From assembly GCA_963827505.1 (NCBI GenBank), contig CAWHBD010000001.1, forward strand, positions 1,286,663 through 1,350,662: DNA of 64,000 nt, given 5' to 3'. The notes beneath the pieces are model-generated. The model was given only the letters and a program-made list of their open reading frames with translations. It searched no databases and was not told the DNA's origin. This document shows, piece by piece, positions 3,566 to 59,017 of the stretch. Position numbers and translations under genes: made by a program. How positions within the stretch are numbered: the stretch's first letter is position 1; every line of letters begins with the position of its first letter. This DNA is from an uncultured Candidatus Rokubacteria bacterium (GTDB taxonomy: Bacteria; Methylomirabilota; Methylomirabilia; Rokubacteriales; CSP1-6).

Positions 3566-3579
3566 CGGCCGCCGGTCGC

Positions 3580-3609
3580 TTGCCTACTCCGACGGGCCTA
3601 CCGTACAAT
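3580..3609 (+). promoter_or_regulatory. Possible sigma70-type promoter TTGCCT-N18-TACAAT upstream of the substrate-binding protein gene
   Basis: TTGCCT is at 3580-3585 and TACAAT at 3604-3609, in the 86-nt gap between hyuB and the SBP gene. This is a pattern match only. Confidence 0.3.
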
Positions 3610-3651
3610 CCCGCCACATCGCAGGCCCGCAACGCCCCTGGGAGGCCGCCC

Positions 3652-5220: not shown

Positions 5221-5221
5221 C

Positions 5222-5323
5222 CCGGAGGGGGGCTTCGCCCCCCTTCCGGCGGTCGTCGCGCGTCTGGTGACGCGCTCCTTCCTGCCTCCCCCCAGGATTC
5301 GGTTGCGCCGGCAAAGCCGGCGC
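5222..5323 (+). other. Two GC-rich hairpins between the SBP and permease genes (intra-operon attenuator/stabiliser candidates)
   Basis: The first is CCGGAGGGGGG-cttcg-CCCCCCTTCCGG at 5222-5249. The second is GCGCCGGC-aaa-GCCGGCGC at 5305-5323. Neither is followed by a T-tract. Confidence 0.35.
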
Positions 5324-5351
5324 TCGACATCCGCCTGAAAATACGTCGGCG

Positions 5352-6359: not shown

Positions 6360-6385
6360 ACCAATCGAAGGGGGCCTCGACTCAG

Positions 6386-9237: not shown

Positions 9238-10800
9238 GTGCACGGCGCCGAGCTCATCCTGGGGCTCCTCATCGCCGTCGCGGCGCTCGTCACCCTCGCG
9301 CGCCGCCTCGAGATCGCCTACCCGATCTTCCTCGTCATCGGCGGGCTGGGCCTCGGGCTCATGCCGGGCGTGCCGCGGATCCACGTCGATCCCGACCTGA
9401 TCTTCCTCATCGTCTTGCCGCCCCTGCTCTACATCGCGGCGTTCTACACCCCCATCCAGAACCTGCGCGCGAATCTCGGGACCATCAGCTCGCTCGCGGT
9501 CGGTCTGGTCATCGTCTCGGCCTGCGCGGTGGCCGTGGTGGCCCACGCCCTCGTTCCGGGCATCTCGTGGTCGGCGGCCTTTGCGCTGGGCGCCATCGTG
9601 GCGCCCCCCGACGCGATCGCGGCCACCGCGGTCACGAGACGGCTGGCCGTCTCGCGCCAGATCGTGACGATCCTCGAAGGCGAGAGCCTGCTCAACGACG
9701 CCACGGCCCTGACCATCTACAGCATCGCCCTCGCGGTCGCGGCCGGGGCCGTCTTCTCTCCGACCGGGACCGTCCTCACGTTCGCGGGCGCGATCCTGGG
9801 CGGCGGTGCCATCGGTGTCGCCGTGGGGTGGATCGTCGCCCACATCCGGGCGCGCATCGAGGACACCCCGGTGGAGATGACCATCTCGCTGCTGACGCCG
9901 TACGCCGCGTTCCTGCCGGCCGACCGGCTCGACGCCTCGGGGGTCATCGCGACGGTGGCGGCCGGCCTCTACCTGGGGCACCGCGGCTCCCACATCATGG
10001 GCGCGGACGCCCGGCTGACCGGGCGCGCTGTCTGGGAGACGATCACCTTCCTGCTGAACGGCCTCGTCTTCATCGTCATGGGGCTGGAGGTACCGCTGCT
10101 CCTGCGTACGCTCACGCTGGAGCAGGCGATCCAGCTGATCGGCATCGGCGTCGCGGTGACGGTCCTGCTGGTGCTCGTCCGGGCCCTGTGGATGCTTGTG
10201 ACCGTGTTCCTGCCCCAGCGGATCCAGGGGCAGCGGAACGCCCTCGCCTGCTCGCTCGTCCTCTCCTGGGCCGGGATGCGCGGCGTCGTCTCACTGGCTG
10301 CCGTCCTGGCGCTCCCGCTGACCGTGTCGGGCGGACGGCCGTTCCCGGGTCGCGAGGCCCTGGTGATCGTCACGCTCACCGTCATCGTGCTCACACTGGT
10401 CGGGCAGGGGCTGACGCTGCCCTCGTTCATCCGGGCGCTCCGTCTGGGTACGGACCCCGGGCTCCGCGAGGAAGAGGCCCGCGCCAGACAGCGCTTGCTG
10501 GAGGCCGCCACCCGACGCCTCGACGAGCTGGATCCGGTGTGGCCGGGCCATCGTCCCCTCCTCGACCAGCTGCGGGAGACGTACCGCCACCGCTCCGAGC
10601 ACGTCGAGCGCCAGCGGGATGCCGCCGAGGGCGACGAGGAAGACCGCGAGCTGATCGAGCACCGGGAGATCCGGCGCACGGTCATCGGCGCGGAACGGGA
10701 GGCGCTGCTGCGCCTTCGCGCCGAGGGCGAGGTCAGCGACGAGGTGCTGCGCGACCTCGAGCGCGAGCTCGACCTCGAAGAGCGCCGCATGGATGCCTGA
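9238..10800 (+). CDS. Na+/H+ antiporter (CPA1 family)
   Basis: GTG 9238 is the start. The ~520 aa polytopic membrane protein has a charged C-terminal cytoplasmic tail. The sequence is typical of Na+/H+ exchanger family members. Confidence 0.85.
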   Translation: MHGAELILGLLIAVAALVTLARRLEIAYPIFLVIGGLGLGLMPGVPRIHVDPDLIFLIVLPPLLYIAAFYTPIQNLRANLGTISSLAVGLVIVSACAVAVVAHALVPGISWSAAFALGAIVAPPDAIAATAVTRRLAVSRQIVTILEGESLLNDATALTIYSIALAVAAGAVFSPTGTVLTFAGAILGGGAIGVAVGWIVAHIRARIEDTPVEMTISLLTPYAAFLPADRLDASGVIATVAAGLYLGHRGSHIMGADARLTGRAVWETITFLLNGLVFIVMGLEVPLLLRTLTLEQAIQLIGIGVAVTVLLVLVRALWMLVTVFLPQRIQGQRNALACSLVLSWAGMRGVVSLAAVLALPLTVSGGRPFPGREALVIVTLTVIVLTLVGQGLTLPSFIRALRLGTDPGLREEEARARQRLLEAATRRLDELDPVWPGHRPLLDQLRETYRHRSEHVERQRDAAEGDEEDRELIEHREIRRTVIGAEREALLRLRAEGEVSDEVLRDLERELDLEERRMDA

Positions 10801-10838
10801 GGTCCTCTGATACGGTTGTCACCGAAGGAGGTTCACGC

Positions 10839-11582
10839 ATGGCCATTCCGCCGGGTGACGTGGTCAAGCAGCAGGTCGCCGCCCACTGGGATCGGCGCGC
10901 CGCCCACTTCGACGAGGACTTCGGACACAGCATCCGGACCCCGGGCGAGCGCGCCGCCTGGGACCGCATCCTCGGCCTCGTCGTGCCCGGCCGGCCCGCG
11001 CTCGACGCCCTCGACGTCGGCGCCGGCACCGGCTTCCTCAGCTTCGAGCTGGCGGCGCGCGGTCACCGGGTCACCGGCGTGGATTTCGCGCCCGCGATGA
11101 TCGCGCAGGCCCGGCACAAGGCGGCGGAGCGGGGTGTCGTGGTGCGGTTCGAGGAGGCCGACGCCGAGCAGCTACCCTTCGCGCCGGCCAGCTTCGATCT
11201 CGTCATCAGCCGCCACCTGCTGTGGACCCTCCCGCATCCGGAGGCGGCCATCGACGAATGGATCCGGGTCTTGCGACCGGGAGGACGGCTGGTCGTGGTG
11301 GACGGCCAGTTCGACACGACCGCCCTCACGACGCCCCCGGCCGGCAGCGCCCGGGCCAGCGCGGAGTATGCCGCCATCGGCAACCGGCTGCCCTTCCTCG
11401 GAGGCCGTCCCCGAGAAGAGATCGAAGCCCTGCTGCGAGCTCGCGGCCTGATCGACGTGGCCAGCGATCCCCTGCTCGATCTCGTGGCCGCGCAGGCACA
11501 ACGGATGGTCGACGAAGGGCTGGAGCCTCGGAGCCATCGTCGCTATATCGTCTGGGGCGACGTCACCCGGGGGCGACCGTGA
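10839..11582 (+). CDS. Class I SAM-dependent methyltransferase
   Basis: ATG 10839 is preceded by GAAGGAGG. The SAM-binding motif LDVGAGTGF is present, followed by the post-I/II motifs. Confidence 0.85.
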   Translation: MAIPPGDVVKQQVAAHWDRRAAHFDEDFGHSIRTPGERAAWDRILGLVVPGRPALDALDVGAGTGFLSFELAARGHRVTGVDFAPAMIAQARHKAAERGVVVRFEEADAEQLPFAPASFDLVISRHLLWTLPHPEAAIDEWIRVLRPGGRLVVVDGQFDTTALTTPPAGSARASAEYAAIGNRLPFLGGRPREEIEALLRARGLIDVASDPLLDLVAAQAQRMVDEGLEPRSHRRYIVWGDVTRGRP

Positions 11583-11666
11583 CGTCATCGCCAAACGCGC
11601 GAATCGCCGCGGCCCTGGTGGTAGGGTGAAGGTACCAGTTCGCACGACTGACGAAGGAGGTACGTC

Positions 11667-11933
11667 ATGACTCAGAGCGTCCGGCAGTGGTTGATCGTTC
11701 CCCTGTGCGTCGTGATCGTGGCGCTGTCGTCTGGCGCCGCCGGTGCCGCCGACAAATCGAAGGTCGATCGGGCCACCAGCCGGGTCGAGCAGGGCGCCCG
11801 GCAGATAGGGCAGGGCGATCTCGGCCCGGGCTTCAAGCAGATGTTCACGGGCATCGGTTACACGATCGTCGAGGGCGCCAAGTTCAGCGGCAACTCGATC
11901 GGCGAGTTCTTCAAGAAGACGTTCAGCAGCTAG
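11667..11933 (+). CDS. Small secreted hypothetical protein (88 aa)
   Basis: A GAAGGAGG RBS precedes it. The signal peptide is MTQSVRQWLIVPLCVVIVALSSGAAGAA. I recognise no family. Confidence 0.5.
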   Translation: MTQSVRQWLIVPLCVVIVALSSGAAGAADKSKVDRATSRVEQGARQIGQGDLGPGFKQMFTGIGYTIVEGAKFSGNSIGEFFKKTFSS

Positions 11934-11944
11934 GACCGGCGAGG

Positions 11945-12775
<831 letters not shown>

Positions 12776-12779
<4 letters not shown>

Positions 12780-13695
12780 CCGTAGCGGATGCGCGGATCG
12801 AGCACGGTGTAGAGCAGGTCGATGGCCAGGTTGATGACGACGAAGATGGTGGCCGACAGGATCAGGACGGTCTGCACCACCGGGAAGTCGCGGAAGAAGA
12901 TGGCGTCGACGACGAGCTTGCCCATGCCCGGCCACGCGAAGATCGACTCGGTGATCACGGCGCCGCCCAGGAGCGTACCGATCTGCAGCCCCAGCACGGT
13001 GAGCAGCGGGATCGTCGCGTTCCGCAGCGCGTGGCGCCAGATCACCGAGCGCTCCGCCAGCCCCTTGGCCCGCCCGGTCCGGATGTAGTCCTGGCCGAGG
13101 ATCTCCAGCAGGCTCGAGCGGGTGAGGCGCGCCACCAGCGCCGTCGGGAACGCGGCCAGGGTGATGCTGGGCAGCACCAGGTACTGCCAGCCCTGGAATC
13201 CGGAGGTCGGCAGCCAGCGCAGGGTGACGCCGAAGAGCAGGATGAGCATGATCCCCAGCCAGAAGTTCGGCAGCGACTGCCCGAGCACGGCCAGCGCGGT
13301 GCCGGCATAGTCGTAGCCGGTGCCTCGACGCACCGCGGCCAGCACGCCGATCGACACGCCGAACACCACCGTCAGCAGCAGGGCGGCCAGCGCGAGCTGG
13401 ATCGTCGCCGGCAGCCGCTCGACGACGACCCGGAGCGCCGGCGCCCGGTACTGGAACGACTGGCCGAAGTCGCCCCGCGCCACCGAGCGCAGGAAGATGC
13501 CGTACTGCACCCACAGCGGCTCGCGCAGGCCGAGCTGCCGGTTGAGCGCGTCGATCGCCGACGGGGCGCGCCCTCGGGCAGGAGCATCTTGGCGGGGTCG
13601 CCGGGCACCACGCGCAGGATCACGAACACCAGCAGCGAGACGCCGACGAGCGTCACCGCCGACTGCCAGAGCCGCCTCAGCAGGTAGGAGCGCAC
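12776..13695 (-). pseudogene. ABC transporter permease (DppB-like), one frameshift as sequenced
   Basis: The N-terminus MRSYLLRRLWQSAVTLVGVSLLVFVILRVVPGDPAKMLLPEGAP starts at 13695. The remainder (...SAIDALNRQLGLREPLWVQYGIFLRSVARGDFGQS...) is in a second frame. The junction is near the G4 run at 13563-13566. Confidence 0.8.
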
Positions 13696-13723
13696 CGGCG
13701 GCCTAGGTGCGTCGGCGACGAGA

Positions 13724-15243
13724 TCAGGCGATGCCGACCTCGTGCAGCAGCACGTAGTAGTCGCGCCGGGCCTCGAAGTTGCGCAGCTTGTCGCTGATGG
13801 CGTAGATGGCCACGCTGTAGTACGGCCAGATCTCGGGCTCGTCCTCCCACAGGATCCGCTCGATCTCCTCGTACTTCTGCTGGCGCACCTTGGGGTCGGG
13901 CACCCGGCCTTCCGCGATGAGCTGCTCGACCTTGGGGTCGGCGAAGCGCGTCATCTTCTCGGCCCCGGCCTTGGTGAACCACTGGCCGAAGTACCAGTCG
14001 GGGTCGTGCGGCATGTGGGCCCAGCCCGAGAAGAAGAGGTCGTAGTTGCCCGCCGTCCGTTGCTCGCGGGCGGTGGCGATCTCCAGATTGCGGATGTTGA
14101 CCTTGATCCCGACGTCGCCCAGCATCGCCGCCACCGCCTGGGCGATCTCCAGCTGCTTGGGATAGAGATCCTTCATCAGCACGAAGTCGATCACCAGGTT
14201 CGACTGTGCCGGCCTGCTTGAGCAGCTGGCGCGCCTTGTCGGGGTCGTACGGCTTCTGCCCGAGATTCGTGTGGCCGATGAGCCCGGGCGGGACGGGGTT
14301 CACGACCGGACGGGCGTAGCCCAGCAGCAGGTCCTTGATGATGACGTTACGGTCGATGGCCAGCGAGATGGCCTTGCGCACGCGCGGATCCTTGACCGTC
14401 TCCCTGGCGAGCTGGAAATGCCAGCGCTGCGCCTCGAGCGCCGGCGTGTCGAGCACCTTCACGCCCGGCGTGCCCTTGAGGGTCTGGACCATGTCCGGCC
14501 ACACGCGATCGATCACGTGGATCTCCCCGGCCCGGAGGGCGGCCGCGCGGGTGGAGAGCTCCGGGATGAAGCGGAAGGTCACCTTCTCCACCTTCGGAAG
14601 ACCCGGCTTCCAGTACCGGGGGTTCGCCGCCAGCTCCACGCGGTCGCCGTGGATCCAGCTGACGAACCGGAACGGGCCCGTCCCCACCGGCTTCTGGAAG
14701 AACGCGTCCTCGGCGCCGGCCACGCTGGGCGGCAGCATGCCGAGCATCGTCAGGTGCGCCGGCAGCGAGCCAAACGGCCGCTTCGTCGTCACCGTGACCG
14801 CGTAGTCGCCGTCCTTCTGGACGTCCTCGATGTCCTGGTAGACGAACGACTTGACCAGCTTGGCGTTGTCGCGCACGCGCTTGAGCGTGAAGACCACGCT
14901 GTCGGCCGTGAAGGGGGTGCCGTCGTGGAAGGTGACGCCCTTGCGCAGGGTGAACCGCCACGTGGTGTTGTTGACGGGCCGCCAGGTCTCGGCCAGCGCC
15001 GGCACGAACTTCGTCGTCGTTGGTGACGTCGAGCAGCGGATCGTAGACGTGGCGGAGCACGGAGGTCGCCGAGATCGAGTAGTGATTCGCCGGGTCGAGC
15101 GTGAGCATCCGCTCGGACAGCCCGGCGATGATCTCCCCCCGCCGGCCCTGGGCCCGCGCCACGCCGGGGCCGACCATCGAGGCTCCGAGGACGGCTCCGC
15201 CTCCGAGAAGGAATTGACGACGATTGACTCTCGATCTCGGCAT
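13724..15243 (-). pseudogene. ABC transporter substrate-binding protein family 5 with a Tat-type signal, two frameshifts as sequenced
   Basis: Three consecutive ORF pieces cover one SBP. Piece one is MPRSRVNRRQFLLGGGAVLG...VTNDDE. Piece two is FVPALAETWRPVNNTTW...LLKQAG. Piece three is NLVIDFVLMKDLYPKQLEIAQ...HEVGIA. The junctions are at about 15006-15012 and 14195-14212. Confidence 0.8.
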
Positions 15244-48814: not shown

Positions 48815-49419
48815 AGATGCCAGGAACAGACGCCGACGTCATCGATGCGCTGGTCGGGATCACGCCGGGGTCTCCCCTGGATGCGATTCGCGCCCGGAGA
48901 CCGGAGGCGCGCGCGCACGCGCAGGCGACGTACCGGGCGCTGTTCGCGCCCGCGACGCCCGGCGGCGTCTCCCCGCCGGAGCGTTTCGCCTTGGGCCAGT
49001 TCGTCGCCGGCCTGCACGGCGCCACGGCGATCGCCACCAGCTATGCCTCGCGCCTCGCCGAGAGCGGAGCCCCGGCGGCTTTGAAGGAAGCCGTCGACGC
49101 GACCATCGCGGAGGCCCGGACCAACGGCCCCTATGGCCGCTACCCGGCGGGGCCGCTCAGCCGCGAAGATGCTGCCGGCTCGAGCTATCGTGTGGGAGCA
49201 GCGAGCCGCCGGGCACTGGGTCCGCGCCTCGCCGCGGCATTCGAGCACGTGCACATGCTCGTCTTCCACCCGCGCGACGCCGCGCCGGCGGCGCTGCAGG
49301 CGCTACTGGACGCCGGCTGGTCCACGACCGACATCGTGACGCTCTCCCAGATCGTCGCTTTCATGTCCTTCCAGATCCGGGTGGTCACTGGATTGCGCGT
49401 CCTGGCCGGCCATTCCTGA
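48811..49419 (+). CDS. CMD (carboxymuconolactone decarboxylase-like) domain protein
   Basis: GTG 48811 forms a GTGA overlap (ATG 48817 is the alternative). The sequence DVIDALVGITPGSPLDAIRARRPEARAHAQ... and C-terminal WSTTDIVTLSQIVAFMSFQIR resemble the Avi_7170-type family from memory. Confidence 0.75.
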   Translation: MKMPGTDADVIDALVGITPGSPLDAIRARRPEARAHAQATYRALFAPATPGGVSPPERFALGQFVAGLHGATAIATSYASRLAESGAPAALKEAVDATIAEARTNGPYGRYPAGPLSREDAAGSSYRVGAASRRALGPRLAAAFEHVHMLVFHPRDAAPAALQALLDAGWSTTDIVTLSQIVAFMSFQIRVVTGLRVLAGHS

Positions 49420-49435
49420 CGAGCGAGGTCCCGAC

Positions 49436-50044
49436 ATGACCGATACCGTCCTGGTGCCTCCGGAACACACGGTTCCGACCGTCTTCACCCGGGCTCAGCT
49501 CGACTGGCTCCCCTGGCTCGAGCCGCTCGCCATCGATGCGATGACCGAGCGCCACCTGGCGAGTCTCGTGGATGCCGCCCGCGTGAAATCGCCCTACTTC
49601 CGCCTCCTCGCCCGGGACCCGGACGCCCTGGAGGCCAGGACGCGGACCGACAAGGACATCTTCTACAACCCCGATGCCGGCCTGCCCCGGGCCGAGCGCG
49701 AGCTGGCCGCCGCCGCGACGTCTCGCTTCAACGGGTGCCTCTACTGCGCCTCCGTGCATGCCCGCCATGCGGCGACCTATTCGAAGCGCGAGGCCGATGT
49801 TCAGCGCCTGCTCGACGCCGGCGTCACCGCCGATCTCGGAGAACGCTGGAATGCCATCGTCGCGGCCTCGGTGGCGCTGACCTCGACACCGAGCGCGTTC
49901 GGGCCGGAGCACGTCGACCGTCTGCGTCGCTCCGGGCTCGACGATCTGGCGATCGCCGACGTCATCCACGCCGCGGCCTTCTTCAACTGGGCCAATCGCC
50001 TGATGCTCTCGCTCGGTGAACCCGCGGCCCCGACCGGATCGTAG
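49436..50044 (+). CDS. Peroxidase-related / alkylhydroperoxidase (AhpD-like) domain protein
   Basis: The CLYC motif occurs in SRFNGCLYCASVHA, with C-terminal FFNWANRLMLSLG. It resembles the Avi_7169-type family from memory. Confidence 0.8.
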   Translation: MTDTVLVPPEHTVPTVFTRAQLDWLPWLEPLAIDAMTERHLASLVDAARVKSPYFRLLARDPDALEARTRTDKDIFYNPDAGLPRAERELAAAATSRFNGCLYCASVHARHAATYSKREADVQRLLDAGVTADLGERWNAIVAASVALTSTPSAFGPEHVDRLRRSGLDDLAIADVIHAAAFFNWANRLMLSLGEPAAPTGS

Positions 50045-50047
50045 ACC

Positions 50048-50458
50048 ATGGCGCACTGGCTCCTGAAGTCCGAGCCTGACGATTGGTCGTGGGCCGAGCA
50101 GGTCGCGAAGGGGCGTGAGGGCGCGGAGTGGACCGGCATCCGCAACCACTCGGCCCAGAACCACCTGCGCGCCATGAAGAAGGGCGAGCAGGCGTTCTTC
50201 TACCACACCGGCAAGGAGCGCGCGATCGTCGGGATCGTCAAGGTGATCGCAGAGGCGCACCCGGATTCGACCGACGCCGCCTGGCGCGCCATCGACGTCG
50301 CCGCGGTGCGGAAGCTGCCGACACCGGTCGGCCTCGACCGAATCAAGGCCGACCAGCGCCTGGCCGGCATGGTATTGGCCAGGCTCCCGCGCCTGTCGGT
50401 CCAGCCAGTGTCGGAGGCCGAGTGGCGGATCATCTGCCAGATTGGCGGACTCGACTGA
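50048..50458 (+). CDS. EVE (PUA-like) domain protein
   Basis: The sequence MAHWLLKSEPDDWSW...WTGIRNHSAQNHLRAMKKGEQAFFYHTG is present. The 136 aa stand-alone form is typical. Confidence 0.85.
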   Translation: MAHWLLKSEPDDWSWAEQVAKGREGAEWTGIRNHSAQNHLRAMKKGEQAFFYHTGKERAIVGIVKVIAEAHPDSTDAAWRAIDVAAVRKLPTPVGLDRIKADQRLAGMVLARLPRLSVQPVSEAEWRIICQIGGLD

Positions 50459-50471
50459 CCGAGCGGCAGCG

Positions 50472-50588
50472 CTACGGTGCGATCGGCGCCGCCATGTCGG
50501 CCTGGATCTCGACCGGGCTGAGCGCCCGGTTGTAGATCCGGATCTCGTCGATCCGGCCCTGGAAGAACTCGCCCCAGATCCCGTTGCT
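50472..50588 (-). pseudogene. Remnant of a LamG/concanavalin-A-like lectin domain gene (C-terminal ~38 codons only)
   Basis: NGIWGEFFQGRIDEIRIYNRALSPVEIQADMAAPIAP-stop matches the usual C-terminal F.G.IDEVRIYNRALS motif. The upstream codons look like non-homologous junk. Confidence 0.5.
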
Positions 50589-50791
50589 CCTGAGCCACGA
50601 CCGGACCATGCGAGTTCCTCGCCGAAGAAGAGTGCGCGCGTCGAGCGTCCGGCGAGAGTGTCTCGCGGTCACGACGTTGTCAACGACAAAGCCCGCACTA
50701 GCTCACATCTGTAAAGACCTCCGACGCTCGACAGGGTAACGTGAGGCTCCGAGGCGGGATCAGCCCGACATCGATCGAGGAGAGGTGCCCC

Positions 50792-51169
50792 GTGTCCATT
50801 GGCCGTGTCCTCGTCGTGGACGACGAACCCCTGGTGCTGAGTACCGTGCGTGACATGCTGCAGTACTTCGGGTATGAAGTCAGCACCGCGGCGAGCGCCG
50901 AGGAGGCCTTTGCCTCCATGAACGCCGGCCGGTCTCAGATCGTGTTGCTCGATCTACACTTGCGGGGAACCTCCGGGCTGGAGGGGCTGACATCGCTCCG
51001 CGAGCTCTATCCGACGGTGCCGGTGATCGTCGCGACCGGGGACATCGGGCACCGATTGGCACGCGAGGCCCGCGACAGTGGGGCATTCGAGGTCATCAGC
51101 AAGCCGTTCAACCTGACCATCCTCAGAAGCCTGCTGGCGCGGGCGATGACGCTGGCACCGCCTCAGTGA
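50792..51169 (+). CDS. Single-domain response regulator (CheY-like receiver)
   Basis: GTG 50792 follows GAGGAGAGG. The acidic pocket is VVDDE, the phospho-acceptor context is VLLDLHL, and the T of ATG and the K of SKPF are present. Confidence 0.85.
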   Translation: MSIGRVLVVDDEPLVLSTVRDMLQYFGYEVSTAASAEEAFASMNAGRSQIVLLDLHLRGTSGLEGLTSLRELYPTVPVIVATGDIGHRLAREARDSGAFEVISKPFNLTILRSLLARAMTLAPPQ

Positions 51170-51250
51170 CCGGACTGCGCGGCCCCCTTCCCGCAGCACC
51201 GCCCTCGGCCCCTGCCCCCAGCGCGCGCCCCTTCGGGCTCCCATGAGGGC

Positions 51251-51769
51251 ATGTTGATTGCTGCTCCAGGTAACGTGCTCATCTCTCGATGCGCCTGGCA
51301 CGACCGGAACTATGGCCACGCGAAGCTGCTTGGCGTGAGCACGTGGCGCGGACGGGGCATCGCGTTCACCAACGGTCTCTGTTCGAGGTGCGCCGCGCGC
51401 ATAAACCCGGCCGTCCCTCCACAGGTCATCCGCGGAGTGACCAAACGCGGCTGCCCGGCCACTGTCGCCGGCTTGTCCGCCGTCATGATGGCACTGATGC
51501 AGGGTGGTGGGCTCGCGCCCCATGTCCCATCTCGTGAACTTCGATCGCACCATGCGGCGTCGCTTCCACGCGAATTTACGTCGCCGCCCCGCGAACTGGC
51601 GTCGCCCCCCAAGAGGGCACCGCTACGGACGCCCGGCACGCCGCCTCGACCCGTCCGCATGGCCCAGGCCCACTCGAGGCCCCCAGCGTCAGCTACCCGC
51701 ATCTCCCTCCCACGTACCGTTTCTTTCACGGAGTCTTCTACAGGGCGGCGCTCGCACCAGTCGCCCTAG
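51251..51769 (+). CDS. Hypothetical protein with an N-terminal Cys/His zinc-knuckle-like motif and a Pro-rich tail
   Basis: The sequence ISRCAWHDRNYG...FTNGLCSRCAAR resembles the CAWC...HGICxxC small-protein motif. The tail has an imperfect repeat REFTSPP/RELASPP. Third-position GC is visibly weaker than in neighbours, so coding status is uncertain. Confidence 0.45.
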   Translation: MLIAAPGNVLISRCAWHDRNYGHAKLLGVSTWRGRGIAFTNGLCSRCAARINPAVPPQVIRGVTKRGCPATVAGLSAVMMALMQGGGLAPHVPSRELRSHHAASLPREFTSPPRELASPPKRAPLRTPGTPPRPVRMAQAHSRPPASATRISLPRTVSFTESSTGRRSHQSP

Positions 51770-51952
51770 GCCCAAGGCGGGAACCCGTGTGACGTCCGCT
51801 GTCCTCAGATGTGCAACGAAGTACCAGGGTTAGGACCACCACGCACTACAGTGGCGACGACCCGCACCAGCAGTATTACGCTGGACCAAGTCAATGGCGT
51901 GTTTATTGAAGCGCCTACCCCACGGAGCGGACATGCATTCCGAACAGCGCGC

Positions 51953-52435
51953 ATGACACCGGCCCCTCGCCCGGACGGCGGCGACCCTGAGCAGACGGCG
52001 CTCCCTCGCCGCGGGCGGCGTCCGTCATCAACGCGACGCCCCACGATCCTGATCGCCGACGATACAACCGACACCCGCGAGCTCTATGCCGAGTACTTTG
52101 GCGGCCGAGGCTTCACGGTGGTCACCGCCGCCGACGGCACTCTGGCCATTCAGGCCGCGCTGGACCATCAGCCCGACGTGATTGTGATGGACCTGGCCAT
52201 GCCGCACATCGATGGCATCACGGCCACCCGGCTGATCAAGGCCGACGCCCGGACGCTACAGAGTCGCGTGATTCTTCTCACCGGGTACACGGGCATGGCC
52301 GTCGAGCGAGACCCGCTGGGTGCGGGCGCGGACCTGGTCGTGACCAAGCCGTGCCTTCCCGACCATCTGGAGCGCCACGTGAACCGACTGCGACGACGTC
52401 GAGCCGCGCCACACCGCGGAAGCCGGCTGCCATGA
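51953..52435 (+). CDS. Response regulator receiver protein with a basic N-terminal extension
   Basis: The sequence ILIADDTTDTRELYAEYF...VIVMDLAMPHIDG...LLTGY...VTKP is present. The ATG 51953 choice is tentative. Confidence 0.8.
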   Translation: MTPAPRPDGGDPEQTALPRRGRRPSSTRRPTILIADDTTDTRELYAEYFGGRGFTVVTAADGTLAIQAALDHQPDVIVMDLAMPHIDGITATRLIKADARTLQSRVILLTGYTGMAVERDPLGAGADLVVTKPCLPDHLERHVNRLRRRRAAPHRGSRLP

Positions 52436-52821
52436 GCCCGCTGGCGCAGCAAATCGCTCACGCCGTTCGCCAGAACGCTCCGCACGTGTACTGCTTCGCC
52501 TGCCTGGCGACGCAGCAGGCGGTGAACGAGCATGACATCCGCGCGGTCGCACTGGTCCTGGTTGCGCGCGCCGGCCTCCGACTGGAGCATCACGTGTGTC
52601 TCCGATGCCAGTGCTCAGGCGAAGTGCTTCTTGCTCAGCCGGCGGCGCCGACCCTATCAGCGAGCCCCGGTAGACCGCGACGGTGGCGTCAGGCGCGCGC
52701 GGACCACCCCTCGGGGGGATCGCAGGCCACGGTGCCCATGTCCGCCGGAACGGACAGCTCCAGGAGCTCCAGGTCTGCTGACGCCCCGGTCTCGTTGTGC
52801 CGCAAGCCGCCCGGAATGTAG
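52432..52821 (+). CDS. Possible small zinc-ribbon protein translationally coupled to the response regulator, 3' end doubtful
   Basis: There is an ATGA overlap with the RR stop. The sequence MSPLAQQIAHAVRQNAPHVYCFACLATQQ...HHVCLRCQCSG contains CxxC...CxxC. Beyond about 52640 the ORF runs antisense to the cupin gene. The real end may lie earlier. Confidence 0.35.
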   Translation: MSPLAQQIAHAVRQNAPHVYCFACLATQQAVNEHDIRAVALVLVARAGLRLEHHVCLRCQCSGEVLLAQPAAPTLSASPGRPRRWRQARADHPSGGSQATVPMSAGTDSSRSSRSADAPVSLCRKPPGM

Positions 52822-53138
52822 AGCGACTCGCCCGACTGGATGCGCAGCTTCTGGCCGTCCTCGAACTCCAGGTCAACCCATCCACTGAGCATGTACACGA
52901 ACTGACCCTCGCAGACGTGGTAGTGCCACCCCGTCGGCTGCGTCATCCCCTCGGCCCCGATGGTGACCTGCGCGCGGATCTTCCCGCTGCTCGCAGCCGT
53001 GACGCCGAGGTCGCGGTATTTGAAGAAGGAGCGCCGGCCCGCCACGAGGGGGGCGGTGATCGGCGTCGCGTACGCCAGCTTGCCCGGGGGGCTCACGGCC
53101 GCCGGCTGTCCGATTGGCTTGCTCGCATCGTTCATCAT
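52689..53138 (-). CDS. Cupin domain protein (cytoplasmic)
   Basis: ATG 53138 follows GAGGAGGCC. Cupin motif 1 is GWHYHVCEGQFVYMLSG and motif 2 is GESLYIPGGLRHNE. Confidence 0.8.
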   Translation of the reverse strand: MMNDASKPIGQPAAVSPPGKLAYATPITAPLVAGRRSFFKYRDLGVTAASSGKIRAQVTIGAEGMTQPTGWHYHVCEGQFVYMLSGWVDLEFEDGQKLRIQSGESLYIPGGLRHNETGASADLELLELSVPADMGTVACDPPEGWSARA

Positions 53139-53189
53139 GGAGGCCTCCTCTGAGTTCGTATCGGTGATACTACCCGATTGGGAGGGCCT

Positions 53190-55235
53190 ATGCGGGCGTG
53201 GACCGTGGACGCCGACGACATCCGGGTTGCCGAGGACCTCGACGAGGCCCTGCTGCACCGCACACCCGAGATCGACAGCTTCCTGAGCCTGGACCGTGAC
53301 GACAAGTTCATCGTCATCGGCACGAAGGGCTTCGGGAAGACGCTGCTCCTCAAGGCCAAGCGAATCCTCTACCAGCGCAAGACGCGGTCGGTCTGTCTGC
53401 CCGCCAGCAACCTGCTCGACAAGCCGATCGGTGACAAGATCTTCAGCAAGGATGCCCTGGCGTTCTTCGCGGAGTCCTCGCTGCCGTGGTCGAAGCTCTG
53501 GCTGACCGCGATCGCGCTCACGACGCTGAAGCACGTGGGCCAGACCGACGACCTGAAGGTGAACCCGCGGCTCGGGCGCCTGCTCGCTGACGCGCCGCTC
53601 CGCGGCGTCATCGACCATTTCGTCCGTCTGCTCGACTTCGCTCCCAGCGAGCTCCTGCGCACCGCCAACGACACCGATGGCCACCTGGTTCCGCGGCTGC
53701 GCGCGATCAAGACGCCGGTGGCCATCTTCATCGACGGCGTCGACGAGTACTTCAACAAGCACATCGAGGCGGTGCGCAACCGGGCCAGCGTGGCGGGGGA
53801 GCTATCACCTGACATCTGGCATTTCGCCCAGCTGGGCCTCGTCGAGGTCGCCTACCAGCTCCGGCGGATCAACCATCACCTGAAGGTCTTCGCGGCGGTG
53901 CGCAAGGAGGCGTACGCACGACTGCTGCAGAGCACGGTGATGAGCCAGCAGTATCGCGGCAGCGCCGTCGACATCGTCTACCCGATCGACAGCCTGCGCG
54001 AGATCTTCGTCAACAACATCCGCCTGGAGAAGGCCGACCGGATGGTCCGTCCCGAGCGCCTGCGCGATGACCCCATCGAGGCGTTCCTGGGTCGGACGAC
54101 GGTGACCCATGTCTACACCGGCCTCGAGGAAGACGCCTTCGACTATGTGTGCCGGCACACGCTGCTCCGCCCGCGCGACCTCATGACGCTGGGCCAGCGG
54201 CTGGCCGCCCTGCGCCCGGACGAGCGGCGCAACGAGCCGCGCCTGAAAGAGGTCGTGAACCAGGCCGCCACCGAGATCGCCCAGGAGTACCTCGTCGAGA
54301 TCGCGCCCTATGTGGTCGGCCTCGACCTGCCCCAGTTCCTCCGCCGCCTCCCCGGCCACATCCTGACCCGCCACGAGGTCGAGACGCTGTTCGACGCCCA
54401 CACCTCGACGACGGGCGCCGTGGAGCCGCAGCACGTCTTCTGCGCGCTCTACCGGGTCGGCTTGCTCGGGTACCCGCTGCCCGACCGGGTGCGCGGCGAG
54501 ACGGTGCAGCGCTTCCTGCGACCCGGCGAGGGGACGCTCGAGCCGGACGGCGTGCTGCCGCGGGCGACGCACTACGTCGTGCACCCGGTGCTCTCGGATG
54601 TCATCGGCCAGGTCAACCCCGCCTACCTGGGCAGAATCGACCGGACGAACATCGTCGGCTATGGCCGACCCTGGCAGGCAACGCGACGCGCCGAGCCTGG
54701 CGCCACACTGCGGATGCTCTGCGTGCTCGTGGCCGACGTCCAGGGCTTCGGCGGCCTCATGCGGGCCGGCGCCGATGCCCCCGTCCGCCGCGCGCTCGAG
54801 GAGGCGGTGCGGAGATCGGCCAAGGACGCCGTCTGCGCCGAGACTGGCGGCGGTGACGCCGTGTTCGTCGTCCACGACGACCCGGTCGCGCTGGCCCGGA
54901 GCGCACGCCATCTCGTGGACGAGGTCTACGGTGCGCCCGGGCAGCCCCGCCTGCGGGTGGCCCTGCACCACGGCGAGGTCCTGACCCGCCGGCGCGAGAG
55001 CGACGACACCATCGCGGTGGCCGGCGGCGAGGCCGTGCTCTGCGCGGTGCGCGTCGAGCCCCACGTGGAGCCTGGTCAGATCTGGGTGACCGAGGCGTTC
55101 CGCGACCAGCTGGCGCGCCAGCCGTCCCTGTGGCGCACCTCACCGGTGGTACTACCCGGTGGCGACGGGCGCTTGAATGCCAGGAAGGGCGACGAGCCCG
55201 ACCTGTGGGTCCGGCTGTATCGCCTCGAGTTCTGA
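53190..55235 (+). CDS. P-loop NTPase fused to a C-terminal class-III-nucleotide-cyclase-like domain (681 aa)
   Basis: ATG 53190 follows GGGAGGG. Walker A is GTKGFGKT (53319-53342) and the Walker B-like motif is VAIFIDGVDE (53718-53747). The C-terminal ~175 aa (about 54702-55232) carry the CHD motif order VLVADVQGFGG / GGGDAVFVV / LRVALHHGEV / GGEAVLCAVRVE. A strong hairpin follows directly. Confidence 0.8.
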   Translation: MRAWTVDADDIRVAEDLDEALLHRTPEIDSFLSLDRDDKFIVIGTKGFGKTLLLKAKRILYQRKTRSVCLPASNLLDKPIGDKIFSKDALAFFAESSLPWSKLWLTAIALTTLKHVGQTDDLKVNPRLGRLLADAPLRGVIDHFVRLLDFAPSELLRTANDTDGHLVPRLRAIKTPVAIFIDGVDEYFNKHIEAVRNRASVAGELSPDIWHFAQLGLVEVAYQLRRINHHLKVFAAVRKEAYARLLQSTVMSQQYRGSAVDIVYPIDSLREIFVNNIRLEKADRMVRPERLRDDPIEAFLGRTTVTHVYTGLEEDAFDYVCRHTLLRPRDLMTLGQRLAALRPDERRNEPRLKEVVNQAATEIAQEYLVEIAPYVVGLDLPQFLRRLPGHILTRHEVETLFDAHTSTTGAVEPQHVFCALYRVGLLGYPLPDRVRGETVQRFLRPGEGTLEPDGVLPRATHYVVHPVLSDVIGQVNPAYLGRIDRTNIVGYGRPWQATRRAEPGATLRMLCVLVADVQGFGGLMRAGADAPVRRALEEAVRRSAKDAVCAETGGGDAVFVVHDDPVALARSARHLVDEVYGAPGQPRLRVALHHGEVLTRRRESDDTIAVAGGEAVLCAVRVEPHVEPGQIWVTEAFRDQLARQPSLWRTSPVVLPGGDGRLNARKGDEPDLWVRLYRLEF

Positions 55236-55248
55236 TCGATGCGGATGA

Positions 55249-55277
55249 GACCGAGGGCGGCCGGGCCGCCCTCGGTC
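55249..55277. terminator. Bidirectional GC-rich hairpin between convergent genes
   Basis: GACCGAGGGCGGCC-g-GGCCGCCCTCGGTC has 14-nt complementary arms. It lies between the stops at 55235 (+) and 55285 (-). Confidence 0.55.
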
Positions 55278-55284
55278 CTCTGCG

Positions 55285-55785
55285 TTATTTCTTGCGCGGG
55301 TCGTCGGCGGGATTGACGTACATCACGTCGAAGGGGCCGGTGCCGTTGATCTGCACGACCGACTCCGCCTCGGCGAGAGCGTAGTGTGGCATGCCGGCCG
55401 GCAGGTGGACGAAGCTCGCCGCCGGCAGCGGCTGCAGCGCTGCCCGGTCGATTTTTTCGCCGGACGTGACCGCGAACGCCCCCGAGATGACGGTGACCAG
55501 CTCGTCCTTCGAGTGGCGATGCGGCGGCACGATGAAGCCGGCGGGGAACCGGAGACGGAGGACGAACGGCCCTTCCTTCGCCGGGTTACCCATCAGGATG
55601 GCAGCCTGGGCGCCCGGTGGCAGCGACGGCGGGGCCGCGCCCCACTGGATCGCGTCCGCTCGAACCACGGTGTGGTGCATCTCGGCGGCATCCAGCGGCG
55701 CTGCCGTCGTGCCGAACGCGGCGACGAGGCCGAGGGACAGGGCGATCAGACGACTCGCGGCATTCCAGGACATCGCGTGCTTCAT
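55285..55785 (-). CDS. Secreted cupin domain protein
   Basis: ATG 55785 follows GGAAAGGA. The signal peptide is MKHAMSWNAASRLIALSLGLVAAFGTTAAP. The cupin core is PPHRHSKDELVTVISG...HLPAGMPH. Confidence 0.75.
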   Translation of the reverse strand: MKHAMSWNAASRLIALSLGLVAAFGTTAAPLDAAEMHHTVVRADAIQWGAAPPSLPPGAQAAILMGNPAKEGPFVLRLRFPAGFIVPPHRHSKDELVTVISGAFAVTSGEKIDRAALQPLPAASFVHLPAGMPHYALAEAESVVQINGTGPFDVMYVNPADDPRKK

Positions 55786-55826
55786 GGCTCGGTCCTTTCC
55801 TGTGTGGGTGGTGTGCAACACGAGGG

Positions 55827-56681
55827 TCACTCCCGCACGATCACGATCTGGAGGTACTCGCTCGGCACGACCATGCTCCCGTCCGTCGCGCGGTTGCCCT
55901 CGTGGGCCAGGGCCAGGAGATCGCGCTCCAGTCCCGCCTGGGCCGTCGGGGCAAGCGCGGCGAAGGCCTTGAGCACCGGGCCGTAGTAGGTCCGGAAGAC
56001 CTCCAGCCAGTGCTCGGGCGAGCGATAGCGGAAGACGAAGCTCCGCGGTGCCGTCGCGATCGAGCGCGCGTGCGGCTCGAACAGCTCGACGATCCGCGCC
56101 TGGCTGCCCCAGAGGGCCGGCGACTTGACCCCCGCCGGCGGCGGAACGTGCTTGCCGACGGTCTTGAAGACCCGCCCGATGAAGCCCTCGGGGGTCCAGT
56201 TGGCCAGGCCGATCTTGCCGCCGGGCTTGCAGACGCGGAGCATCTCGGCCGCGGCCCGCGCCTGGTCCGGGGCGAACATGACCCCGAACGTCGAGACGAC
56301 CACGTCGAACGACCCGTCCGCGAACGGCAACGCCTCCACGTCGGCCTCGCGGAACTCGATGGCGAGCCGCTCGGCCACGGCGCGCTCACGGGCGCGCTCG
56401 AGCAGCGCGGGCACATAGTCCGTGGCGACGACCTCGCACCAGCGCCGGGCGGCGGCCAGCGAGGCATTGCCGTTGCCGGCGGCGACGTCGAGCACCTTCT
56501 GTCCGGCCCGGACATCCAGGGCAAGCGACTCGCACAGCTCCTCGCCCACGATCTGCAGCGTGGTTCCGATGACGGCGTAGTCCCCCGACGACCACGCGAC
56601 CCGCTGGCGGGCCTTGACCGTCTCGAGATCGGGCTGGCCAGCCTCACAGCTGATACCACTCGCGGCAACGGCGGTCTCCAT
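55827..56681 (-). CDS. Class I SAM-dependent methyltransferase
   Basis: The SAM motif is VLDVAAGNGN, with FDVVVSTFGVMF and LRVCKPGGKIGL. The product is 284 aa. Confidence 0.85.
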   Translation of the reverse strand: METAVAASGISCEAGQPDLETVKARQRVAWSSGDYAVIGTTLQIVGEELCESLALDVRAGQKVLDVAAGNGNASLAAARRWCEVVATDYVPALLERARERAVAERLAIEFREADVEALPFADGSFDVVVSTFGVMFAPDQARAAAEMLRVCKPGGKIGLANWTPEGFIGRVFKTVGKHVPPPAGVKSPALWGSQARIVELFEPHARSIATAPRSFVFRYRSPEHWLEVFRTYYGPVLKAFAALAPTAQAGLERDLLALAHEGNRATDGSMVVPSEYLQIVIVRE

Positions 56682-56852
56682 GGCTCCCCTTCCTCCTGGC
56701 GGCTTGGCCCCGCGACGTCCCGCGTCGCCTCACCGACACGCCGATGCTGCGCTCCGACCGTGGGAGCCAGCGTGGGAACGGCCGTGGAATCGCCACCGGT
56801 CGGCAGCTCCCGGTCAGCCGATGCTCGGCGCATGGCGGACCGGCCACCGGAC

Positions 56853-56861
56853 TGGCATAAT
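56853..56861 (+). promoter_or_regulatory. Possible extended -10 element TGGCATAAT upstream of the SARP-type regulator
   Basis: This is a pattern match only. It lies 20-110 nt upstream of the candidate starts. Confidence 0.25.
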
Positions 56862-56970
56862 CAGTCGCATTCGTGGCCATTTGCGTGTGCGGCCTGGATC
56901 GCGACTGAAGCGGCCGGACGGAGGGCCGCCGGCGGCAGCTCGCGCGTCGGACGGCGAGCCGTCGACCCAG

Positions 56971-58915
56971 GTGCGCGTCCTCGGACCGTTGACGATCGTG
57001 CGGGCCGGTCGCGCGCTGCCCCTACCCGCGTCGCGCAAGGTGCGCGCGCTCTTCGCCTACCTGGCCCTGGCGCCGCTTCCCGTAACGAGAACCCACCTGT
57101 GCGAGCTGCTCTGGGATGTGCCCAACGATCCCCGTGGCGAGCTCCGCTGGTGCCTCAGCAAGGTCCGGAGCGTCGTCGACGAGCCCGGCCGCCGGCGTGT
57201 CCACACGCGCGAGGACACCGTCGAGCTCGACCTGGCCGACTGCTTCGTCGACGCCGCCGAGGTCGCCCGCGCGGCCCAGGCGGGCATCCCGACGCTGCCG
57301 CCGGACCGGCTGCGGACGCTGTCCACCCTCTTCAACGGAGACTTCCTGGAGGGGCTGGACGTCGATGGCACCCTGGCCTTCAATGGCTGGCTGACCGCTC
57401 AGCGGCGTCGGTTCCGGGCCTGTCACACCGCCCTGCTGGAGCACCTCGTCAGGACCGCTCCGGGTGATGAGGCCTTCACGCATCTGGAGACGTGGCTCCA
57501 GCTGGCGCCCTTCGACCCTCACGTCCACGAGATCCTCCTCGCCGCGCTCGCACGGCGCGGCCGTATCCGGGAGGGCGAGGACCACCTGACGGCAACGACC
57601 CGGCTATTCGAGGCCGAGGGTCTCGATCCCGGTGCGATCCGGGACGCCTGGCGGTCGGCCCGAGCGTCCGCGGCCCCCTCGGTGACGGTTCCCGCGAGCG
57701 TTGGCGTCGAGCCCATCGTCCTCATCGCCGCTCGCCGCGCCTCCCTGGCGGTGATGCCGTTCGTCGACCGGTCGGGGGACGGTGCGGGGGGTGGACCGGG
57801 CGACGCCCTCGCGCACGACGTGATCACCCGGCTGGCGCAGCTGCGCAGTCTGTTCGTCATCGCCCAGGGCACCGTGTTCGTCCTGCACGAGCGACACGTC
57901 GGATCCGAAGAAGCGGGGCGGATGCTGAACGTCGACTACGTGGTCAGCGGGTCCGTCCGGCGCCAGGGCCGGCGCCTCACGGTGACGGTCGAGCTGGTCG
58001 AGACGCGCACGGCCCGGATCGTCTGGGCGGAGATCTTCAACCGCACAGCCGACGACACTTTCGTGGTCCTCGACGAGATCGGGAACCGGATCGTCGCGTC
58101 GATCGCCGGCGAGATCGAGATGATCGAGCGCAACCGGGCCATCCTGAAGCCGCCGAGCTCGCTGGACGCGTGGGAGGCGCATCACTGCGGCCTGTGGCAC
58201 ATGTACCGCTTCAGCAAGGCCGACAACGAGCGGGCCCGGCACTTCTTCGAGACCGCGGTCCACCTCGATCCGACCTTCGCGCGCGCCTACGCCGGCCTGT
58301 CCTTCACGCACTTCCAGAGCGCCTTCCAGGGCTGGGCCAAGCGCCAGCCGGAGGTCGATCGCGCCTTCGCGACAGCCGGCCAGAGCCTCATGGTCGACGA
58401 TCGCGATCCCGCCGCGCACTGGGCCATGGGTCGAGCCCTCTGGCTACGCGGGCAGCACGACCAGTCGATCGTCGAGCTGGAGCGGTCCATCGACCTCAGC
58501 CCGAACTTCGCGCTGGGCCACTACACGCTCGCCTTCGTTCAATCCCAGGCCGGCGATCCGACCGCCGCCATCTCGTCCGCGGACTACTCGCGCCACCTGA
58601 GCCCCTTCGACCCGCTGCTCTTCGGCATGCTCGGCGCCCGGGCCATGGCCCTGGTGCGCCTGGGCCAGTTCGACGAGGCCGCAGACTGGGGCGTCAAGGC
58701 CGCCGCCCGCCCCAACGCGCACCCGCACATCCTGGCGATCGCCGCCTACAGTCTGGCACTGGCCGGTCGGCTGCCGCGACGCCCGTGCGCATGCCGCTGC
58801 GTTGCACGGCCGGCTTCCTCGTTACACCGTCGCCGACTTCCTTGCCGCCTTCCAGTTCGATCCGCAGGGCACCGCCCTGTTCCGCAAGGGGGCCCGGCGA
58901 CTGGGGACAGGATAG
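56971..58915 (+). pseudogene. SARP/AfsR-type regulator: winged-helix DNA-binding + BTAD + TolB-N-like + TPR region, C-terminal frameshift as sequenced
   Basis: The sequence VRVLGPLTIVRAGRALPLPASRKVRALFAYLAL...LCELLWDVPNDPRGELRW covers the OmpR/PhoB-type wHTH and BTAD. SLAVMPFVDRSGD is the TolB-N-like part, followed by TPR-like repeats. After ...SLALAGRL the frame shifts at about 58771-58782. It continues as ARAHAAALHGRLPRYTVADFLAAFQFDPQGTALFRKGARRLGTG-stop (TAG 58913-58915). The start is uncertain (GTG 56971, or TTG 56881 / GTG 56887). Confidence 0.75.
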
Positions 58916-59017
58916 GGCCGGCTACTCTCGTCCTTCTATGAGTCCCGCGTGTCGATCCCCGAGGTCTCCGTTCGACTCAAGGGCAGAGCACATGCAGACG
59001 AAGGAGCTGGAGACAAC

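Follow-up and report, generated by a model that had tools for sequence, protein, structure and literature searches.

What can a gene do that joins a P-loop ATPase to a nucleotide-cyclase fold and stands alone among its neighbours? The question is raised by a 64,000-nt stretch from an uncultured Candidatus Rokubacteria bacterium (hereafter the window; 70 % GC, all coordinates being positions in it), which carries at 53190–55235 on the forward strand a coding sequence for a 681-aa protein made up of a P-loop ATPase of the Sll1717 family and a C-terminal class III cyclase-homology domain. A first-pass annotation, made from the nucleotide sequence, had taken it for an undescribed nucleotide-signalling or conflict protein, proposing a signal generator gated by nucleoside triphosphates (NTPs), which might serve as a single-gene defence module, or else a degenerate cyclase used as a sensor. 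The explanation that we favour, and to which we give about an even chance, is that of a single-polypeptide, NTP-gated nucleotide cyclase, in which oligomerization of the ATPase would switch on a dimer-dependent cyclase.

The cyclase domain and the ATPase

The C-terminal domain comprises residues 505–681 (~177 aa; 54702–55232, on the forward strand like all features of the gene given below). Searches of Pfam and the PDB with the single query sequence returned nothing significant, and the homology became significant only through a profile of 30 family sequences, which matched Rv1264 (E = 3.7e-11), 3mr7 (1.6e-10) and Rv1900c (1.9e-10), as well as sGC, Ma1120, Rv1625c, CyaC and the mammalian AC5 and AC9, with E values that overall range from 3.7e-11 to 1e-6. 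In an AlphaFold2 (AF2) model of the full-length protein (mean pLDDT 90.8), the cyclase region has pLDDT values mostly of 81–97, except for a block of 10 residues at the N-terminal edge, with 77. The top 50 Foldseek matches of the full-length model in the PDB were all cyclase domains, Rv1900c being superposed with a TM-score of 0.79–0.83 and a root-mean-square deviation of 2.6–3.0 Å. The cyclase fold and homology are established, and the C-terminus models as the cyclase-homology fold that its motifs had led the first-pass annotation to expect.

Conservation at catalytic positions was counted in 327 family members of 27–91 % identity. Present in every one of them (327/327) are the first metal-binding Asp, D516 (54735–54737); the second, D556 (54855–54857), in the GD motif of GGGD; the Arg of the 'R-x-G-x-H-x-G' strand, R589 (LRVALHHG, 54954–54956), which aligns with an Arg of Rv1264 and 3mr7 and whose equivalent contacts phosphate in canonical cyclases; and the transition-state Arg, R621 (AVRVE, 55050–55052). 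The C-terminal Lys, K666 (55185–55187), is kept in 323 of the 327 and would occupy the γ-phosphate Lys position of canonical cyclases. The canonical transition-state Asn, which in Rv1264 is the N of 'VNVASR', corresponds in the alignment to L617 (55038–55040); Leu occurs there in 214 sequences, Arg in 94, Gln in 7 and Asn in none. Likewise, the purine-specifying pair (Lys/Asp for ATP, Glu/Cys for GTP) is replaced family-wide by T552 (T/V/I/A) and V610 (I/V/L), an equivalence drawn from motif spacing and an alignment to hidden Markov models (HMMs), not from a ligand complex. A codon-by-codon check found the coordinates first assigned to the Walker motifs, D516 and the cyclase motifs to be exact, and the early observation that the Arg is retained while the transition-state Asn is replaced holds for R621 and L617.

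Without the transition-state Asn and with non-canonical specificity residues, the domain might be a dead pseudo-cyclase that binds a nucleotide and regulates the ATPase, much like the degenerate sensor first proposed; inactive cyclase domains occur in other NTPase conflict systems (PMC7159879). We consider this very improbable, since the metal-binding Asp residues, both Arg and the terminal Lys, invariant or nearly so, are not what a mere binding module would be expected to keep, and bona fide enzymes fill the same slot in paralogues. Nei–Gojobori dN/dS over 2775 pairs was ~0.20 in the ATPase and 0.28 in the cyclase domain, and 0.10–0.13 against the closest loci; both domains are under purifying selection, and values of 0.1–0.3 likewise speak against a degenerate cyclase. 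Because it is exactly the metal and phosphate residues that are kept, neither decay nor pure ligand binding is expected, and the domain probably is an active enzyme whose ribose and base pocket is non-canonical.

An active fold could still catalyse a different nucleotidyl transfer, or use a pyrimidine or modified NTP, instead of making cyclic AMP (cAMP) or cyclic GMP (cGMP). Such altered chemistry would fit the Leu or Arg found at the Asn position in 308 of the 327 sequences and the hydrophobic base contacts beside invariant metal and phosphate residues, and it has a precedent in Pycsar, whose class III-like folds make cyclic CMP or cyclic UMP (PMC11224242). The nearest matches in sequence and in structure are, however, ordinary adenylyl and guanylyl cyclases, and the Pycsar uridylate cyclase 8jsz was reached only at E = 1.1, so that we hold this reading to be distinctly unlikely. 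Because the metal and phosphate residues are invariant and the ribose and base contacts replaced, the cyclase could nonetheless add a new product or specificity class. Compared with the class III cyclases Rv1900c and Rv1264 of M. tuberculosis and Ma1120 of M. avium, the domain has the same fold, motif order, metal-binding Asp, Arg and Lys, but lacks the transition-state Asn, has a hydrophobic base-specifying pair, matches PF00211 only below threshold and follows an N-terminal AAA+/STAND-like ATPase rather than a sensor, α/β-hydrolase or pH-sensing domain. Judged by these residues, the protein belongs to the class III cyclase superfamily as a divergent member, lacking two canonical features of the active site.

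The ATPase module spans residues 1–497 (53190–54680) and closes with a conserved linker (YLIHP / NIVG-GR-W). NCBIfam NF047389, 'P-loop ATPase, Sll1717 family', matches residues 7–469 over profile positions 5–451 of 454 with 88.2 bits (E = 6e-25; curated cutoff 75 bits), and the protein is a member of that family. Together with the profile match of 3.7e-11 for the C-terminus, this bears out the proposed combination of a P-loop NTPase with a C-terminal class III cyclase-homology domain. Invariance in the ATPase was scored over 75 diverse sequences. Residues G47, G49 and K50 of Walker A (GTKGFGKT, 53319–53342) are invariant, T51 being so in alignment A1, as are D182 and D185 of Walker B (VAIFIDGVDE, 53718–53747), whose E186 is conserved at 90 % or above. 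The same is true of R238 and E240 in the segment R238-K-E240 (53901–53909) at the end of strand 231–238, where R238 is a candidate sensor-1-type Arg, and of R322, H323 and R329 in the lid motif R322-H-T-L-L-R-P-R329-D330 (54153–54179).

Modelling of residues 1–497 with AF2 from 75 diverse relatives (pLDDT 95.4, pTM 0.94) gave a module that opens with a conserved N-terminal segment and continues with a P-loop core, whose Walker A and Walker B are separated by a long helical insertion; a helical lid, a winged-helix-like hairpin and the conserved linker follow. A helical region and a β-hairpin at 426–441 are seen in the model. The likeness to AAA+/STAND lid and winged-helix parts that had been suggested from sequence has a possible counterpart in the lid and the hairpin, and is faint at the level of whole folds. 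Foldseek comparison of the model with the PDB and with viral structures gave nothing below E = 1e-3, the leading matches being the RdrA heptamer, Cdc6/Orc1, MalT, Clp/FtsH, the wheat resistosome, NOD2 and a KAP-like protein, at 5e-3 or weaker overall (RdrA, STAND/NLR-like) and at 0.013–0.07 for the STAND proteins MalT, NOD2 and the resistosome. A profile search for solved relatives of the ATPase part found none, Pfam and PADLOC contain no model for it, and the query has no significant NACHT, NB-ARC or AAA_16 match. Because the structure search gives weak matches only and the profile search none, we describe the module as an AAA+/STAND-like switch ATPase that lacks a characterized close relative. 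Nor was a STAND-type sensor found in the protein: there are no TPR, WD40 or LRR repeats, ~40 residues precede the P-loop, and the chain ends with the cyclase.

RdrA of RADAR and STAND/NLR-like ATPases such as Avs and bNACHT, the best of the weak fold matches, combine an oligomerizing switch with an enzymatic effector, and this logic would apply here too; the present protein differs from them in having no repeat or sensor domain, and in carrying its effector at the C- rather than the N-terminus, and no defence context was found for it. Mycobacterial proteins of the Rv0386/Rv1358/Rv2488c type have the order cyclase-ATPase-TPR-LuxR. They share with our protein the presence of a class III cyclase and a STAND-type P-loop ATPase in one polypeptide, but here the ATPase comes first and the cyclase last, TPR and helix-turn-helix (HTH) parts are absent, and the ATPase belongs to another family (NF047389).

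The output slot of the ATPase family

This ATPase-first, cyclase-last order without TPR or HTH recurs widely. Clusters at 90 % identity number more than 1000 in a word-indexed search; of those listed, nearly all are full-length with ~680 aa, and many already carry JGI's automatic label 'class 3 adenylate cyclase'. An exhaustive search of 50 %-identity representatives gave 1376 matches at E ≤ 1e-3, 414 of them at E ≤ 1e-30. The family is abundant in soil metagenomes and comes almost wholly from uncultured lineages. Apart from its NCBIfam name and the JGI label, it is as undescribed as had been supposed: our literature searches returned no description of the Sll1717/NF047389 family or of ATPase-cyclase defence fusions, and no functional study, in the searchable literature, and in profile searches no already annotated family of known function covered the whole architecture.

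A census of tails was made on the 95 representatives with a complete ATPase module among the top 150. The tail is a cyclase in 61, another domain after the same conserved linker in 30, and absent in 4; the ATPase-cyclase protein is neither a rare nor an orphan architecture and predominates in its ATPase clade (61/95). The alternative tails include TIR, DUF4062, PIG-L deacetylase, Ser/Thr kinase, CN-hydrolase and methyltransferase domains, PNP/MTA-nucleosidase-like and AdoHcyase-like domains, and SEFIR, the last on a Butyrivibrio plasmid. Three tail types without a Pfam match, the P0146 (~420 aa, 7 representative clusters), P0183 (~280 aa, 4) and P0211 (~170 aa, 3) clades, are candidate output domains. 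That these swapped-tail proteins share the ATPase was confirmed on alignment A2, comprising 55 proteins without a single-sequence match to the query C-terminus, 53 of which matched NF047389 (E ≤ 1e-5).

Induced proximity or dimerization is a common way of activating TIR, kinase and cyclase domains. As the interchangeable tails are of such proximity- or dimer-activated types, we infer that the ATPase is an oligomerization switch. On the side of the cyclase, class III enzymes including Pycsar have symmetric dimer active sites and their monomers become active upon dimerization, which has been proposed as the activation step of Pycsar (PMC11224242). In the mechanism that we favour, a trigger would lead the ATPase to bind NTP and oligomerize; the oligomer would pair the C-terminal domains into the head-to-tail dimers that the fold requires for catalysis; and the paired cyclase would convert NTP to a cyclic or otherwise processed nucleotide, which might act on receptors whose genes lie elsewhere, unless the enzyme acts through NTP consumption itself. 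The same ATPase carries different, presumably proximity-activated enzymes as a modular family, and the gene travels horizontally as an accessory unit without a partner. The NTP-gated signal generator of the first-pass annotation is in this sense the best mechanistic reading, strengthened by the TIR, SEFIR, DUF4062, nucleosidase and kinase paralogues.

Several observations weigh against it. The assignment of the ATPase to the oligomerizing switch ATPases is weak, resting on motifs and on fold similarities all weaker than E = 1e-3; no sensor domain was identified in the protein, and no receptor or effector for a product was identified either. Pfam PF00211 (Guanylate_cyc) remained sub-threshold on the query and touched only one of 40 relatives (E = 0.003). 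The orientation of the two modules is less certain than their folds, with a pTM of 0.75 for the full-length model against the 0.94 of the ATPase alone. Finally, because the Asn and the purine pair are absent family-wide, activity could be low or the chemistry different.

The set of swapped tails agrees with what is known of NTPase-based conflict systems, in whose 'nucleotide-derived signal' slot a cyclic nucleotide (cNMP) cyclase, TIR-like and nucleoside phosphorylase domains interchange (Kaur et al., 2020; PMC7159879). There, too, an NTPase-linked scaffold can carry a TIR-like or a nucleoside-phosphorylase domain in place of the cyclase; those systems are, however, multi-gene (vWA-MoxR, VMAP and others) and enriched in multicellular bacteria (PMC7159879), whereas ours consists of one gene by itself, has another ATPase and comes without associated components. 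Pycsar (PycC with PycTIR or PycTM) resembles it in its class III-like cyclase with specificity residues of non-purine type, and differs in that here no receptor or effector gene is adjacent in 88 loci, no PADLOC cyclase model is matched, and the solved Pycsar cyclase gives only the E value of 1.1 noted above. The architecture is new among NTPase-regulated cyclases and NTPase-effector fusions, and not categorically new. If the favoured mechanism is true, it would provide compact, one-protein control of a nucleotide cyclase through induced proximity by an AAA+/STAND-like switch, and its naturally swapped tails (cyclase, TIR, SEFIR, nucleosidase, kinase) would be a means of learning how a single switch drives different enzymes.

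Distribution, mobility and possible roles

A pattern-seeded scan of a 185,579-species genome collection gave 307 candidate loci, a lower bound; because there are only so many, the distribution looks patchy. The best 80 of the 307 share 66–88 % identity and are all from metagenome-assembled genomes (MAGs), with labels that include Rokubacteria/Methylomirabilota, Acidobacteria (Vicinamibacterales), many Burkholderiales, Acetobacteraceae and other Alphaproteobacteria, a deltaproteobacterium and Chloroflexia. In blastn comparisons of nine loci with the window, similarity began at 53178–53190 and ended at 55233–55244 (55139 in L076), and no flank was common to the nine loci and the window, even at 84–85 % nucleotide identity. 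Neighbouring open reading frames (ORFs) within 6 kb, clustered over 88 loci, yielded no conserved partner; the top families, present in 11 loci, reflect synteny inside one Rokubacteria lineage, where genes for a luciferase-like monooxygenase and an FAA hydrolase are syntenic. Homologues are not embedded in a conserved operon, housekeeping or other, and in some hosts the gene deviates from its flanks by up to −6.3 or +6.7 percentage points of GC. Given the sharp borders, varied flanks and GC deviation, it behaves as a solitary, horizontally mobile accessory gene, passed on vertically within some lineages.

Three loci deserve separate mention. Nitrosotalea is an archaeal ammonia oxidizer of low GC. 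A 73 % identical copy on a contig labelled Nitrosotalea sp. (L018, DATIWG010000062.1) has flanks with a GC content of 68.6 %; this points to misbinning, a more probable explanation than inter-domain transfer. In an Acetobacteraceae MAG (L035, DATMND010000009.1), a partial extra copy of the first ~86 codons (7348–7605), 81 % identical to window positions 53190–53447, is found 2.4 kb ahead of the complete gene (10001–12047) and may be the remnant of a duplication or replacement. The orthologue of a Deltaproteobacteria MAG (L021, ~513/514; JAJONK010000062.1) is without an equivalent of 53688–53807, that is, of 40 codons around Walker B, and has a GC content 6.7 percentage points above that of its flanks; this copy may be a recent acquisition that has been inactivated.

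Does such a gene serve ordinary physiology? It could encode a cAMP- or cGMP-making enzyme for which the ATPase is a regulatory input (energy charge or a metabolite, for example), like the multidomain class III cyclases of soil bacteria. Its place always among ordinary chromosomal genes, the Rokubacteria synteny just described, which indicates vertical inheritance in that lineage, strong purifying selection and the lack of a compositional anomaly in the window are all in keeping with this. So is a 34 %-identical member (L089) that has a SulP/STAS transporter with a cNMP-binding domain (2710–4947) 3 kb upstream and a separate Guanylate_cyc-TPR protein (11845–13980) 1.8 kb downstream, an arrangement that may be a coincidence or a local cNMP module. 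Against these stand the purine-specifying residues and catalytic Asn missing family-wide, a patchy occurrence (307 candidate loci in 185,579 species) that crosses phyla at 66–75 % identity with flanks always different, and the TIR and SEFIR fusions of the same ATPase, which are atypical of housekeeping regulators. On balance, we think this role unlikely. Should the function not be defence, the family would still represent a new regulatory input for bacterial cyclic-nucleotide signalling.

The other role to be weighed is that of a single-gene anti-phage or abortive-infection system, in which the ATPase would sense a phage cue and the cyclase would make a toxic or alarm nucleotide or drain the NTP pool. 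Its appeal lies in an output slot shared with immune effectors (TIR, SEFIR, DUF4062, PNP-type nucleosidase and a kinase like MAD6 of MADS), in weak best fold matches that include RdrA of RADAR and NLR/STAND receptors, and in the spread of a one-gene unit across phyla. The context of the gene does not bear it out. PADLOC recognized no model on the query beyond the P-loop (GajA P-loop match, E = 0.068), nor any Pycsar model. A census with PADLOC and Pfam of 110 non-redundant neighbour proteins from 59 loci showed no enrichment of defence islands: the Pfam content was metabolism, transport and two-component systems, and the handful of isolated PADLOC matches came to one kinase (matching many PD-T4-6 models), one or two MADS-like proteins and one MkoA-like protein. 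Annotated neighbourhoods were equally ordinary for close members, for members of 34–53 % identity and for other divergent members, including twelve further annotated places that represent eight distinct neighbourhoods, and the four loci found for the TIR-tailed paralogue had ordinary neighbours and no defence islands. Relatives were present on two of 72,556 plasmids in PLSDB, both distant and limited to the ATPase module, and in none of 50,697 phages. Moreover, conservation is unusually high for an arms-race gene (66–91 % identity, dN/dS 0.1–0.3), and there is no receptor or effector partner, unlike in Pycsar, CBASS and Thoeris. A defence module, as put forward in the first-pass annotation, is therefore doubtful; if that were nevertheless the role, the system would be one missed by current detection tools.

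The context that comes nearest to conflict is that of the only relative in IMG/VR (L092:1–18061, IMGVR_UViG_3300040801_002902), a full-length member of 32 % identity in a mobile-element island, which, as a divergent member among toxin genes, counts in favour of an anti-phage role. It lies at a GC dip (47–49 % against 53–66 %), with an HNH nuclease, a RES toxin, HigB/HigA, a MobA/VirD2-like relaxase and a phage lysozyme as neighbours, and an 84 % identical copy is found in the isolate Roseinatronobacter monicus. The same island also encodes a 1253-aa protein (3112–6873) without a Pfam match. The domain-swap logic, the mobility and this context suggest a conflict role, whereas the neighbourhood statistics do not support one. 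A bolder version would make the Sll1717-type ATPases an unrecognized family of self-contained immune or stress proteins combining sensor, switch and effector, in which NTP-driven oligomerization would turn on the non-canonical cyclase of the cyclase-tailed majority, which would make an unusual nucleotide or collapse an NTP pool, and the TIR, SEFIR, nucleosidase and kinase paralogues would share the switch. The family would then amount to a new single-gene conflict system, widespread among uncultured bacteria of soil and overlooked by present defence-finding models; this we regard as speculative and rather improbable.

The gene and its flanks in the window

The 681-aa ORF opens with the ATG at 53190 and closes with the TGA at 55233–55235. 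A Shine-Dalgarno-like GGGAGGG, near which nucleotide similarity to orthologous loci sets in, was read from the sequence at 53180–53186, 3 nt ahead of the ATG, so that the ORF with its own ribosome-binding site is as first annotated. An in-frame TTG at 53178 would be an alternative, 685-aa start, but homologues begin at the ATG instead. The GC content at codon positions 1/2/3 is 0.73/0.43/0.92, coding-typical for a window of 70 % GC. Because the upstream gene (cupin, 52689–53141, reverse strand, 48 bp away) is divergent and the downstream one (cupin/DUF4437, 55285–55830, reverse strand) convergent, the gene is monocistronic, in line with the lack of an operon partner noted at the outset and of any conserved neighbour across loci.

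Between the stop codons of the convergent genes lies the hairpin that had been seen right after the ORF, a perfect GC-rich palindrome at 55249–55277 with arms of 14 nt (55249–55262 and 55264–55277), 100 % complementary, in a 71-nt stretch that folds at −40 kcal/mol (z = −3.7). It is likely a bidirectional terminator or an RNA-stabilizing hairpin. A strict scan for promoters and terminators made no calls at the locus, the palindrome included; the latter was missed, and is no textbook intrinsic terminator, because its T-run is weak. An Rfam search of 49000–58000 gave no match.

An imperfect 25-nt direct repeat of 80 % identity (53162–53186 and 55144–55168, with the shared core TACTACCCG) brackets nearly the whole gene, one copy just upstream of the ribosome-binding site and ATG and the other ~70 nt ahead of the stop codon. 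We considered it as a cassette boundary and rejected it as probably due to chance, since the same positions in 81 orthologous loci are without the repeat.

The patchy region beside a gene remnant, in which the gene was first thought to lie, was not recovered. The GC content of the gene (0.694) is not anomalous against flanks of 0.688 in the window, no remnant was found, and the genes around it are undamaged; they encode two orphan receiver domains, an EVE-domain protein, a CMD protein, cupins, a methyltransferase and a BTAD-TPR regulator. The two stand-alone response-regulator receiver genes (50741–51169 and 51809–52435, forward strand) lack an output domain and an adjacent histidine kinase. 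What was read as a remnant may be the gap of ~780 bp between them (~51170–51950), which contains no called gene and no Rfam match. Farther upstream, a small EVE-domain protein (PUA-like; 50048–50458, forward strand; Pfam E = 2.7e-41) is preceded by a CMD-family gene and a 202-aa ORF without a Pfam match. On the other side, the longest ORF of the BTAD-TPR regulator (56614–58941, forward strand) starts from a TTG and overlaps by ~70 nt the 5′ end of the methyltransferase gene (55827–56681), which has the opposite orientation; the true start of the regulator probably lies farther downstream than this TTG.

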